Source of the DNA: Sphingomonadales bacterium
Lineage (GTDB): Bacteria; Pseudomonadota; Alphaproteobacteria; Sphingomonadales; Sphingomonadaceae
Assembly: GCA_038323755.1 (NCBI GenBank)
Contig: JBBQHG010000001.1
Location: 1-44,844 of the forward strand
DNA: 44,844 bases
Direction: 5' to 3'
The stretch's first letter is position 1. Every line of letters starts with the position of its first letter. Position numbers and translations under genes: made by a program. The notes beneath the pieces are model-generated. The model saw only the letters and a program-made list of their open reading frames with translations. It had not been told where the DNA came from and made no database searches. Shown here piece after piece: positions 8,759-12,165 of this stretch.

Positions 8759-8837
8759 CACCCGTTCGCTGGCCGCACCGCCACCCGTTCGTAAGCCGCC
8801 CTGCCGCCCGTTCGTGGGCCACACCGCCACCCGTTCG
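8759..8837 (+). repeat. 23-bp degenerate tandem repeat (about 3.4 copies)
   Basis: C(A/G)CCCGTTCG recurs at 8759, 8782, 8805 and 8828. Confidence 0.8.
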
Positions 8838-8909
8838 TTTCGAGCGAGGTCGAGAAACAGGCCACAAAAAGCTGCGCAGCGTATCGCAGCTTCGCCCGAG
8901 ACGAACCGG
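8831..8909. repeat. Degenerate REP-like element (second family)
   Basis: CCGTTCGTTTCGAGCGAGGTCGAGAAAC pairs imperfectly with GTATCGCAGCTTCGCCCGAGACGAACCGG. Confidence 0.6.
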
Positions 8910-10056: not shown

Positions 10057-10431
10057 CGCCTAACCCTCGAAAATCGCCCGGTGAATGATCGCACGACCGT
10101 GCCCGAACATGCCCGGCGAAAATGGCTCAAAAACGGCAGACATGCGGACAGTCTGGCGCATCCGCATCACGGGCAACACGCTGGCGGAACAATCTTCGGT
10201 CCGCAGAACCGGCTGCAGCTCAAGCCTTATGGCCCGTTGCGCGGGGGCGCTTGATCCGGACGCGAGCGAGCGATTGCGCTTCAAGGGCAGCGGACAAAGC
10301 GACCTGCGGATTAGTAGCTGCCGTTCCTCGACCTCGCCATCATAGTCCGATGACAAGCGAGGTTTTACTGGCGGGACCCCGGATCAAGTCGGTAGTTATA
10401 CCCTTTGGACATGTAGCCCTAAATCTGGTAA

Positions 10432-10743
10432 ATGTTCGGGATGCGAATCACATTTCACGGATTGCTCGCAGCATCCCCGGTTCCGCTTGCGGGGTTATGG
10501 CTTGGCGCGTGTCAGATTTGGAATACGCCCAAGAGGATTACGGAATGGGGGTGGCAGCAAATGCACCACCCTCTAGGAGTAGCAATCGCGATCGCCTCCG
10601 TGTTGATCTACGTTTTGATTTTGTGGCTAACACGCCCAAAGAAACCAATAGAGTCGCCCGACACTTTAGGGGCATCTGAAAAGGGCGGGGGCGTTTACAC
10701 ACAGAATCACGCCGGTTCTGGCGACAACGAAATGAACTTCTGA
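10432..10743 (+). CDS. IS cargo: small membrane protein with C-terminal QNHxGSGxN motif
   Basis: Two hydrophobic segments (LLAASPVPLAGLWLGAC; LGVAIAIASVLIYVLILWL), a polar linker and a terminal GGVYTQNHAGSGDNEMNF; start uncertain (10432 or 10441). Confidence 0.75.
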   Translation: MFGMRITFHGLLAASPVPLAGLWLGACQIWNTPKRITEWGWQQMHHPLGVAIAIASVLIYVLILWLTRPKKPIESPDTLGASEKGGGVYTQNHAGSGDNEMNF

Positions 10744-10753
10744 GAGGACTGGT

Positions 10754-11062
10754 ATGGCTGGCAATATCTTTAACCAAAATCATACGGGCAGCGGGAACAA
10801 CGTCATAAATGTAGGGACGCGCGAACAAAATGCGCTCTATCAAGACGACAGAAAAGTCGCCATTGTTGTAAACGGGGCATTCACCGACAAGGAAGGTGAA
10901 ATTCTCTTCGGGGAAATTCGGTTCATTGACAGCGCAGACACAACGAGGCCGTTTCAATTTCAAGGTGTCCGACTCATCTGCGACACACCGAGCGTCATTT
11001 CTACCGCACCGGGAAATTTCATGAACCTTGTTGACAACGTGCGTTGCAGGATTCTCAAATGA
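10754..11062 (+). CDS. IS cargo: small soluble protein with N-terminal QNHxGSGxN motif
   Basis: GAGGA RBS; starts MAGNIFNQNHTGSGNNVINVG, followed by a beta-rich domain. Confidence 0.8.
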   Translation: MAGNIFNQNHTGSGNNVINVGTREQNALYQDDRKVAIVVNGAFTDKEGEILFGEIRFIDSADTTRPFQFQGVRLICDTPSVISTAPGNFMNLVDNVRCRILK

Positions 11063-11250
11063 ATGAAGAACCTACGATAGCAAACGACCCTGGAGCGCGT
11101 TTCGATGCGCTGTTGCTCGCCATGACGAACGGCAAAGCGCCTAGCGCGAAAAAGAAACCATCAGCCGCGCCAGCATCAGGTGAGGCGTCTCGCGCATGTT
11201 GTGACGATATTCAAACTCCGAAAGATACTTCGGAAGATGCTTCGCGCTGA
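11059..11250 (+). CDS. Small IS-internal ORF, antisense to the transposase 3' end
   Basis: ATGA overlap with the upstream cargo gene; MNEEPTIANDPGARFDALLLAM... Confidence 0.45.
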   Translation: MNEEPTIANDPGARFDALLLAMTNGKAPSAKKKPSAAPASGEASRACCDDIQTPKDTSEDASR

Positions 11251-12019
11251 CATGAATGTGCGTGCCATTGATCCCGCGCTTAAGCTGCGCCCACATGCCT
11301 TCGATGGCGTTGGTAGTGGCGCCACGCTTGCCAACGTGCGCGCCCGTCTTGTGGCTGACCGTGATGTGGTCAAAGCCTTGCTGACCGAGGAAGCGATACG
11401 AGCCGAACTCGTCGCTGCTGATCGTGGTGCCTGGGATGATCGACGAATGGATAAGCGCCTCCATTGGCCCGCGCGTGCGACTTTCGACAACGCGCATTGC
11501 GAGCTTTCCGCCGCGCTCTTTCATGCCAACGACAACGGCCTTGTTGCCCATATATCCGTTGCCCTTGCCACTGATCGAGCCGCCAACGATCGTCTCGTCA
11601 ATCTCAACCGTGGTGCCGGGACCGCCAAGGAAATCATCGCCGTCAACGTCGCCCATATACTCGCGGATTTGGTGACACATGCGCCAAGCGGTTTTGTACG
11701 TCACGCCAAGCTGGCGCTCGACTTCTTTCGCAGCAACGCCGTTCCGCGAACTGCAAAACTGAAACATCACAAAGAACCAGTCGCGCAGCGGCGTGCGGGT
11801 GCGATCAAACGGCGTGCCAGCGGTCGGATAGACCTGATGTGCACACCACTGGCACTGATACGAGCGGCGAGCCTTCACGCGCGAAAACTTGGCGGGCCGA
11901 TCGCAGCCGGGGCAATCAAAGTCAGTGCCGTAGCGCACCTGAAACAGGTGATCGAGGCAAGCGTCCTCGGTCGGGAACTGCGCTTGGAACTGGCGAAGGG
12001 TGGGGGCTTTCGTGCTCAT
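11141..12019 (-). CDS. IS1595-family DDE transposase
   Basis: Zn ribbon CPGC...CQWC, HTH (LGVTYKTAWRM), VEIDET, SSDE, TNAIEGMWAQLKR, KHLPKYLSEFEYRHN. Confidence 0.95.
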   Translation of the reverse strand: MSTKAPTLRQFQAQFPTEDACLDHLFQVRYGTDFDCPGCDRPAKFSRVKARRSYQCQWCAHQVYPTAGTPFDRTRTPLRDWFFVMFQFCSSRNGVAAKEVERQLGVTYKTAWRMCHQIREYMGDVDGDDFLGGPGTTVEIDETIVGGSISGKGNGYMGNKAVVVGMKERGGKLAMRVVESRTRGPMEALIHSSIIPGTTISSDEFGSYRFLGQQGFDHITVSHKTGAHVGKRGATTNAIEGMWAQLKRGINGTHIHVSAKHLPKYLSEFEYRHNMRETPHLMLARLMVSFSR

Positions 12020-12165
12020 AGGCATTGTATGCCACATCCGCTTACATGTCGCAAGGGGATAATTGCCGATCAAGTCCGGGGTGACAGCGATGGGGGTGGA
12101 TGTCTGCGCGAAAGACCCGCCGCCACGCGCAGCCAACACGCCCGCCCGCAACAGCGAGGCGCCAA

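Follow-up and report, generated by a model that had tools for sequence, protein, structure and literature searches.

Two adjacent genes, each coding for a protein of about 100 residues, are carried as cargo by an insertion sequence of the IS1595 family in a Sphingomonadales bacterium. They share a short motif, found at the C-terminus of the first protein (ORF1, a membrane protein) and at the N-terminus of the second (ORF2, a small β domain). Judged by sequence, they share the QxHxGSG[DN]N core of BASS11 (known from the Bab/Agp or GAPS6 system) without its last strand. There is good reason to regard ORF1 and ORF2 as a natural split, and about an even chance that they represent an anchor-motif-domain protein divided in nature into two parts, joined by an amyloid-type plug and probably used in defence. 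The DNA analysed is a stretch of 44,844 nt (contig JBBQHG010000001.1), referred to here as the window, and positions are numbered within it.

ORF1 (10432-10743) and ORF2 (10754-11062) both lie on the forward strand with 10 bp between them; the coordinates and translations are those given in an earlier note on this DNA. ORF1 ends in GGVYTQNHAGSGDNEMNF (10687-10740, forward strand; profile E 0.026) and its stop codon follows directly, while the ATG of ORF2 stands directly before GNIFNQNHTGSGNNVINV (10760-10813, forward strand; profile E 0.0064). Aligned without gaps, the two copies are identical at 9 of 18 residues, as the earlier note had counted, and their BLOSUM62 score of 59 was reached by none of 20,000 whole-protein shuffles (maximum 44) and by none of 100,000 shuffles of the 18-mers that preserve composition. 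The match is kept at the protein level, again as had been claimed: different codons are used at seven of the nine identical residues, and the DNA of the two copies is identical at 28 of 54 positions. A six-frame scan of the 2.72-Mb assembly (63% GC, 85.5% complete) found QxHxGxG[DN]N at exactly two sites, one in ORF1 and one in ORF2, at the facing ends of the two genes and with 73 nt from Q to Q.

Bab/Agp is the GAPS6a/GAPS6b abortive-infection system of E. coli ECOR25, whose amyloid motif, BASS11, has been tested (10.1101/2024.11.07.622273). That study names Bab residues I87, G88, S89, V90, Q92, D99 and N100; the substitutions Q92P, D99A and N100P each abolish BASS11 foci, and N100P abolishes phage resistance (10.1101/2024.11.07.622273). 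A reference for the numbering came from a pattern scan of 401 genomes of the phylum, its own included. Matches occurred in 17 of the 400 others; 16 were read as shadow frames, and only L026 was credible. This locus is orthologous to Bab/Agp: it matches PDB 9H9V at E 1e-32, in colinear order along residues 1-84, and also matches GapS6a and GapS6b. Its tail puts I87-G88-S89-V90, Q92, D99 and N100 on TQNHSGSGDN. The equivalents of Bab Q92, D99 and N100 are all kept in ORF1, as Q91, D98 and N99. In ORF2, Q8 and N16 correspond to Q92 and N100, and N15 occupies the D99 position, the one at which D99A abolished foci and at which 55 of 58 reference copies have D.

When 50,104 six-frame genome segments were ranked with a profile of 58 non-redundant motif copies, the copies of ORF1 and ORF2 took the top two places; for ORF1 this is in part circular, since its copy fits the pattern with which the loci were gathered. 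The match takes in only positions 7-16 (ORF1) and 4-18 (ORF2) of the profile's 26. The final (V/I)xG[DN]K(I/V) strand of BASS11 is missing from both proteins: ORF1 ends in DNEMNF, with E where 58 of 58 references have V or I, and ORF2 continues as NNVINVG. Both copies depart from canonical BASS11 in the same ways, with an aromatic residue two positions ahead of Q and without the xG[DN]K turn, as would suit a private pair.

The likeness to Bab/Agp extends to the arrangement of the genes, which are adjacent, collinear and about 10 bp apart, to the placing of the motif, which ends a membrane-targeting protein of roughly 100 aa and begins the protein encoded next, to the QxHxGxG[DN]N core (Q92 and N100 kept in both copies, D99 in ORF1), and to carriage on a mobile element. 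The differences lie in the partners. ORF1 lacks the Bab/Bell helical effector (PF20701, NF047935), which the control L026 matches at E 6e-37 and 2e-36, and ORF2, all-β and of 102 aa, lacks the TPR-GreA/B-C-PIN sensor (NF047936); Agp has 1,094 residues, compared with 80 for the ORF2 domain. With the Bab domain and the TGP sensor both absent, the pair resembles Bab/Agp in layout and motif but is not a member of that system.

A shared motif running tail to head, in collinear genes separated by a very short distance, is also characteristic of the BASS1-10 Bell/NLR pairs and of fungal HET-S/NWD2. The intergenic distance is 10 bp or less in 57% of collinear BASS pairs (10.1101/2020.01.06.895854). 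In contrast to the BASS1-10 Bell/NLR pairs, the present pair has no NB-ARC/NACHT NLR downstream and no Bell or HeLo domain, and its ORFs are of about 100 aa. The earlier note had recognised no NLR or Bell domain either, in agreement with the outcome of family searches: neither ORF matches a family in Pfam, NCBIfam, PADLOC or PHROGs. The word GSGDN does not occur in the searched part of supplement 1 of PMC8086366, where related words belong to PDB fragments of the negative set. No description of a BASS11 pair made of a membrane protein and a small barrel, or of one borne by an insertion sequence, was found in the literature searched; the list of architectures in the Bab/Agp paper may hold membrane partners. 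The partners are new, in that ORF1 is an integral membrane protein and not Bell or Bab, and ORF2 is a predicted β-barrel of 80 residues and not an NLR or Agp.

ORF1, as annotated, has 103 aa. Its true start is probably Met4 at 10441, giving 100 aa, since the sole ORF1 homologue (P0005) begins there. Hydropathy and this homologue identify it as an integral membrane protein with a C-terminal motif. The earlier note had described two hydrophobic segments; one is a strong transmembrane helix at about residues 46-67 (Kyte-Doolittle up to 2.5), and the other, near the N-terminus, proved only weak (about 1.2). RPKK comes next to the strong helix, then a polar linker and the motif. By the positive-inside rule, the RPKK that follows the helix would place the ORF1 motif on the cytoplasmic side of the membrane. 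The motif of ORF2, a protein with no export signal, would likewise be cytoplasmic.

A Shine-Dalgarno-like GAGAGGA (10742-10748, forward strand) lies 5 nt 5' of the ORF2 start. Its duplex energy, -5.8 kcal/mol, is equalled or bettered by 8.5% of 4,000 sampled internal ATGs, and it gives modest support to a separate ORF2 start. A scan of the locus for promoters and terminators gave matches at chance level only. AlphaFold2 modelling from four sequences gave a mean pLDDT of 68.5 for ORF2; residues 23-102 are predicted as all-β, mostly at 70-90, and correspond to the β-rich domain of about 80 aa that the earlier note had described. Residues 1-22, which hold the motif, are unstructured or of low confidence. 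Folding from the single sequence was poor (pLDDT 42.8). With the homologues, the model points to a small barrel. A search of PDB folds with this domain gave nothing at E 0.001 or better, a VIA search gave weak small barrels at best (Z 4.8, rmsd 2.7, 62 aligned, EF-Tu-like barrel), and a search of viral folds gave none; absence of a clear match is not proof of a new fold. Two cysteines of the domain, C76 and C98, are invariant in all four sequences.

Effectors of the CBASS Cap15 type are membrane proteins with two transmembrane segments and a β-barrel. If ORF1 and ORF2 are taken as one unit, the combination of membrane helices and a small predicted β-barrel is similar. They differ from that type in that the element contains no cyclase, and in that two separate genes are joined by a motif. 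No sequence or fold match to Cap15 was reported, and it is not among the best 50 VIA fold matches.

The pair had been placed inside an insertion sequence, and its carrier is now delimited as an IS1595-family element of 1,677 bp with passenger genes (10391-12067, reverse strand), on the basis of inverted repeats, an empty site and related copies. The terminal inverted repeats, at 10391-10415 (left, forward strand) and 12043-12067 (right, reverse strand), are identical at 20 of 25 positions when aligned. A 9-bp target-site duplication, GATCAAGTC, is found at 10382-10390 and 12068-12076, and contigs of runs X3 and X4 contain the empty-site allele, with 10381 joined to 12068. The transposase (11141-12022, reverse strand) has a zinc ribbon and a DDE domain (PF12760, PF12762; NF033547 at E 3e-51) and is convergent with the ORF1-ORF2 cargo. 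IS1595 elements with passenger genes go by the term 'transporter IS'. This one shares with them the zinc-ribbon and DDE transposase, the inverted repeats, the target duplication and the convergent passenger genes; it differs in having a motif-linked pair as cargo. The target duplication is of 9 bp here as opposed to 8 bp in most relatives with one detected, among the matches listed.

The cargo slot varies between close copies of the element. In X6 and X8, contigs share the left end of this element up to 10416 and closely resemble its right part, but the cargo between differs and measures 727 and 766 nt; near-identical backbones with different cargo indicate that the slot is exchanged. Thirty related elements (L003, L162-L190), taken from genomes in the same family, formed a comparison set, and the left end was located in 17 of 31 loci. 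Among the matches listed, a BASS11-like motif is absent from the other 30 elements. In at least six (L162, L163, L165, L169, L170 and L171, by eye) the slot holds one ORF with membrane helices and a variable domain; L174 has a seventh such gene, which comparison with L165 shows to be interrupted by an in-frame stop. Where scanned, these seven gave no Pfam or PADLOC match. PADLOC matches were obtained for six of 32 cargo proteins (four PDC-S42, one PDC-M34A and one Cas2/VapD-like), and the models concerned are mostly candidate systems. The variable-domain genes directly inside the left end could possibly be an uncharacterised family of membrane defence genes.

Several other features were seen in or near these elements. 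An ORF of 63 codons (11059-11250, forward strand) overlaps the ORF2 stop through ATGA and runs antisense into the transposase end; a similar small ORF (DPxAxFDxLLxAM) is found at the same place in L003, and the ORF is perhaps a conserved backbone component whose translation is coupled. Related transposases have a two-gene neighbour (L181:2496-3843 and L183:33-1380) encoding a soluble protein of about 281 aa and a protein with three transmembrane segments. This pair looks Kiwa-like; it has no Pfam or PADLOC match at E 0.001, and the soluble protein none in NCBIfam at 0.01. A VapD/Cas2-like gene with an upstream partner adjoins an IS1595 transposase (L188:856-1347, L189). Elsewhere in the window, at 8761-8838, three direct repeats with a period of 23 nt (CCCGTTCG...) occupy intergenic DNA after an HNH-like gene.

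A census of the motif gave 13 loci from viral contigs and 111 from metagenome contigs (31 with short flanks), 124 in all. These comprise 42 split pairs, 27 internal or N-terminal singles, 6 C-terminal singles, 4 fused ORFs with transmembrane segment, motif and domain (3 distinct: L056, L082/L100 and L092), 1 transmembrane protein with a C-terminal motif (L075), and 44 put aside because they are probably shadow frames, although at least one of them (L097) is likely a real protein. Pairing was counted over 125 loci, including L026, in which the second copy escapes the expression used. Of the 125, 42 have two copies no more than 200 nt apart, in every case split over two ORFs, tail then head; tandem copies in one ORF were seen at none of the 42. 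The distance from Q to Q in these pairs is 58-141 nt, a range that includes the 73 nt of the window, and the window copies, identical at 8 of 16 residues, fall at the low end of the range for the 42 pairs (8-12). The pairs are mostly Bab-like kin and not independent events: the upstream partner is Bab-like in 35 of the 42, and only 28 pairs count as non-redundant at 70%. L139 has the layout of the ORF1-ORF2 pair with unrelated partners, a gene with transmembrane segment and motif (L139:40-232) and, after it, a gene that begins with the motif.

Membrane proteins carry BASS11 copies in several layouts (L139, L075, L070/L083, L056, L082/L100 and L092): a transmembrane-motif protein followed by a motif-led one, motif before transmembrane segment, transmembrane-motif-domain, and transmembrane-motif-P-loop NTPase. 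Such partners go beyond those named in the text of the Bab/Agp paper (10.1101/2024.11.07.622273). The motif has also been detected in other settings. Phage proteins L012, L013 and L015, beside a spanin-like gene in the lysis region, have QxHxGSGDNIGG followed by a His/Ser-rich tail and are possible phage-borne mimics of BASS11. Long proteins that by eye look like LRR-COR (Roco) proteins carry an internal copy (L055, L066, L067, L098, L117, L127 and L128). An in-frame Met stands five residues before that copy, which suggests that translation could start internally and yield a C-terminal product led by the motif.

Homologues of the two proteins are few. A profile search of 1.84 billion representatives gave six matches, ORF2 itself among them. 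The ORF2 domain is C-terminal in three: P0002 (348 aa, E 1e-17), where it follows two membrane segments, P0004 (197 aa), behind a single N-terminal anchor, and P0006 (127 aa), behind a signal peptide. Each has a different short Gly/Asn/Ser-rich motif just ahead of the domain. P0005 (226 aa, E 1.1e-4, 40% identical) is a fused homologue of ORF1 with a related HxGSGxN motif, followed by a different, helical C-terminal domain. All four credible homologues are thus single ORFs composed of anchor, motif and domain, and both halves of the pair exist as parts of such fusions with swapped partners. The sixth match, P0003, was rejected as spurious (PPC repeats), as on inspection were the weak matches L010 and L295. 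The N-terminus of P0002 has a layout similar to ORF1 and no detectable sequence similarity to it, and was not accepted as a homologue.

No second copy of the pair was found in locus scans of genome, metagenome and viral contigs, or in whole-genome searches of 301 genomes of the family, 301 of the class and 301 + 371 of the order, its own genome included. A word-indexed protein search returned only ORF2 itself for ORF2 and no match for ORF1, a search with the barrel alignment among proteins of 55-223 aa returned only the three known members, and tblastn against plasmids gave only matches at E of 2 or more. The barrel domain is probably exported in some relatives. The signal peptide of P0006, the single N-terminal anchor of P0004 and the two invariant cysteines weaken the case for a cytoplasmic sensor role. 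A second linker motif, SxxQxGGITAxxVxV, occurs between anchor and C-terminal domain in the otherwise unrelated P0002 (residues about 249-268) and L243, and may define another amyloid-like family; a scan of viral contigs for SxxQxGGITA gave one clear protein with two transmembrane segments, motif and domain (L243) among 56 distinct contexts.

The fused state of all these relatives, the three with the barrel and the single one of ORF1, is an argument that the pair was once a single anchor-motif-motif-barrel gene, broken by a small indel and now either a decaying pseudogene or a single protein expressed by frameshifting. One ORF with transmembrane segment and domain is also the usual cargo of the slot, and one such gene, in L174, is broken. 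At the junction the two frames share an open stretch of a few bases, and a barrel that is normally anchored and exported would account for the conserved cysteines. This account is a real rival, though a fairly unlikely one. The fused homologues carry one motif each, not two, and none of the 42 two-copy loci has both copies in one ORF. The break would have to hit about 20 of 630 nt, as estimated from the sequence, between the copies, leaving a stop just after the first and an ATG with a ribosome-binding site just before the second, in ORFs otherwise free of stops and frameshifts. X1, perhaps the source sample, has an identical junction. The junction recurs in X9, from another study, at a depth of 2; that match begins only 6 nt upstream of the ORF1 stop and has one synonymous change. 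The amyloid-signalling reading of the earlier note stands in part: the motif is the BASS11 core and tail-to-head pairing is the norm among two-copy loci, and against it the four credible homologues are single ORFs. That note had also held that homologues forming a single ORF with an internal repeat would count against a pair; the four are single ORFs, each with one motif and no repeat.

If the split is natural, the shortened BASS11 copies are predicted to stack as cross-β, joining a membrane protein to a small β-barrel-like protein, and this stacking would replace the covalent link of the fused relatives. The unit would most likely serve in phage-triggered abortive infection. A phage product or stress ligand would bind ORF2 barrels and cause them to cluster; the clustered barrels would nucleate the motif and template the ORF1 tails, and the helices of ORF1, once clustered, would damage the inner membrane and arrest the infected cell. 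Since ORF1 is already in the membrane, activation would proceed by clustering and not, as in Bab or HET-S, by refolding of a soluble helical domain. Sensing, clustering and membrane damage are the weakest part of this mechanism, since two barrel relatives look exported, the domain, unlike NLRs or Agp, has no evident trigger for oligomerisation and the motif is trimmed. The reading as a whole is favoured by the use of BASS11 with other membrane partners (L139, L075, L056, L082/L100 and L092), by the tail-to-head split of two-copy loci (42 of 42), by the transmembrane-plus-variable-domain cargo of related elements and by the PADLOC matches of 6 of 32 cargo proteins. It is weakened by the lack of a second copy of the pair in the searches, by the fused state of all four credible homologues, by the loss of the last strand and by the absence of any PADLOC model matching ORF1 or ORF2. 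In its fullest form, a minimal amyloid immune system of two proteins of about 100 residues each, in which a β-barrel phage sensor acts through a trimmed BASS11 plug on an integral-membrane killer within a 630-bp IS1595 cargo, the proposal is tentative and rather doubtful.

The main functional rival is a natural split pair in which the motif, as a small β-solenoid or short amyloid, tethers the barrel permanently to the membrane and neither a switch nor cell death is involved; such a pair might be a membrane-bound decoy, a superinfection-exclusion factor or an envelope-stress factor. In the fused relatives the junction of anchor and domain is always filled by a short Gly/Asn/Ser-rich motif, drawn from differing families (P0002, P0004, P0006, L243, L082 and L092), as would suit a tether; no known sensor or killing domain was found in ORF1 or ORF2 with Pfam, NCBIfam or PADLOC, and some barrel relatives look exported. 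However, a constitutive tether gives little reason for splitting the gene, and the characterised BASS and FASS pairs in the literature found are, or are proposed to be, cell-death switches; a tether without killing is a fairly unlikely reading.

A still less likely explanation, with little probability, is that the module acts in trans on another BASS11 system, as decoy or adaptor, or is an orphan remnant captured by the insertion sequence. The motif family is common to the widespread Bab/Agp and other pairs and the cargo is freely exchanged, but the host assembly (85.5% complete) has no further BASS11 copy, 300 sampled genomes of the order have none apart from three weak single matches (L192-L194, E 0.02-0.04), and the deviations common to both copies suit a private pair. 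Chance likeness of two Gly/Asn-rich low-complexity segments, which might be considered given the many shadow-frame matches of pattern scans (44 of 124 loci lack V or I after DN), is effectively refuted by the composition-preserving shuffles and by position, since a 2.7-Mb genome has no copies but these two, which lie at facing gene ends with 73 nt between them.

Were the gene merely broken, the value remaining would be the census of the motif family. Bab/Agp is the one functionally tested bacterial amyloid-signalling system in the literature found. If the plug between ORF1 and ORF2 is real, it would work without an oligomerising sensor of NLR or TGP size and without a Bell or HeLo effector, and the pair would be the smallest amyloid-signalling circuit available for dissection. 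It would also suggest a function for the orphan genes with transmembrane segment, motif and domain that are exchanged by IS1595 elements. If the pair is indeed a minimal immune system, these orphan cargo proteins, with an anchor, a Gly/Asn motif and a variable domain, would be all-in-one switches with interchangeable amyloid linkers.
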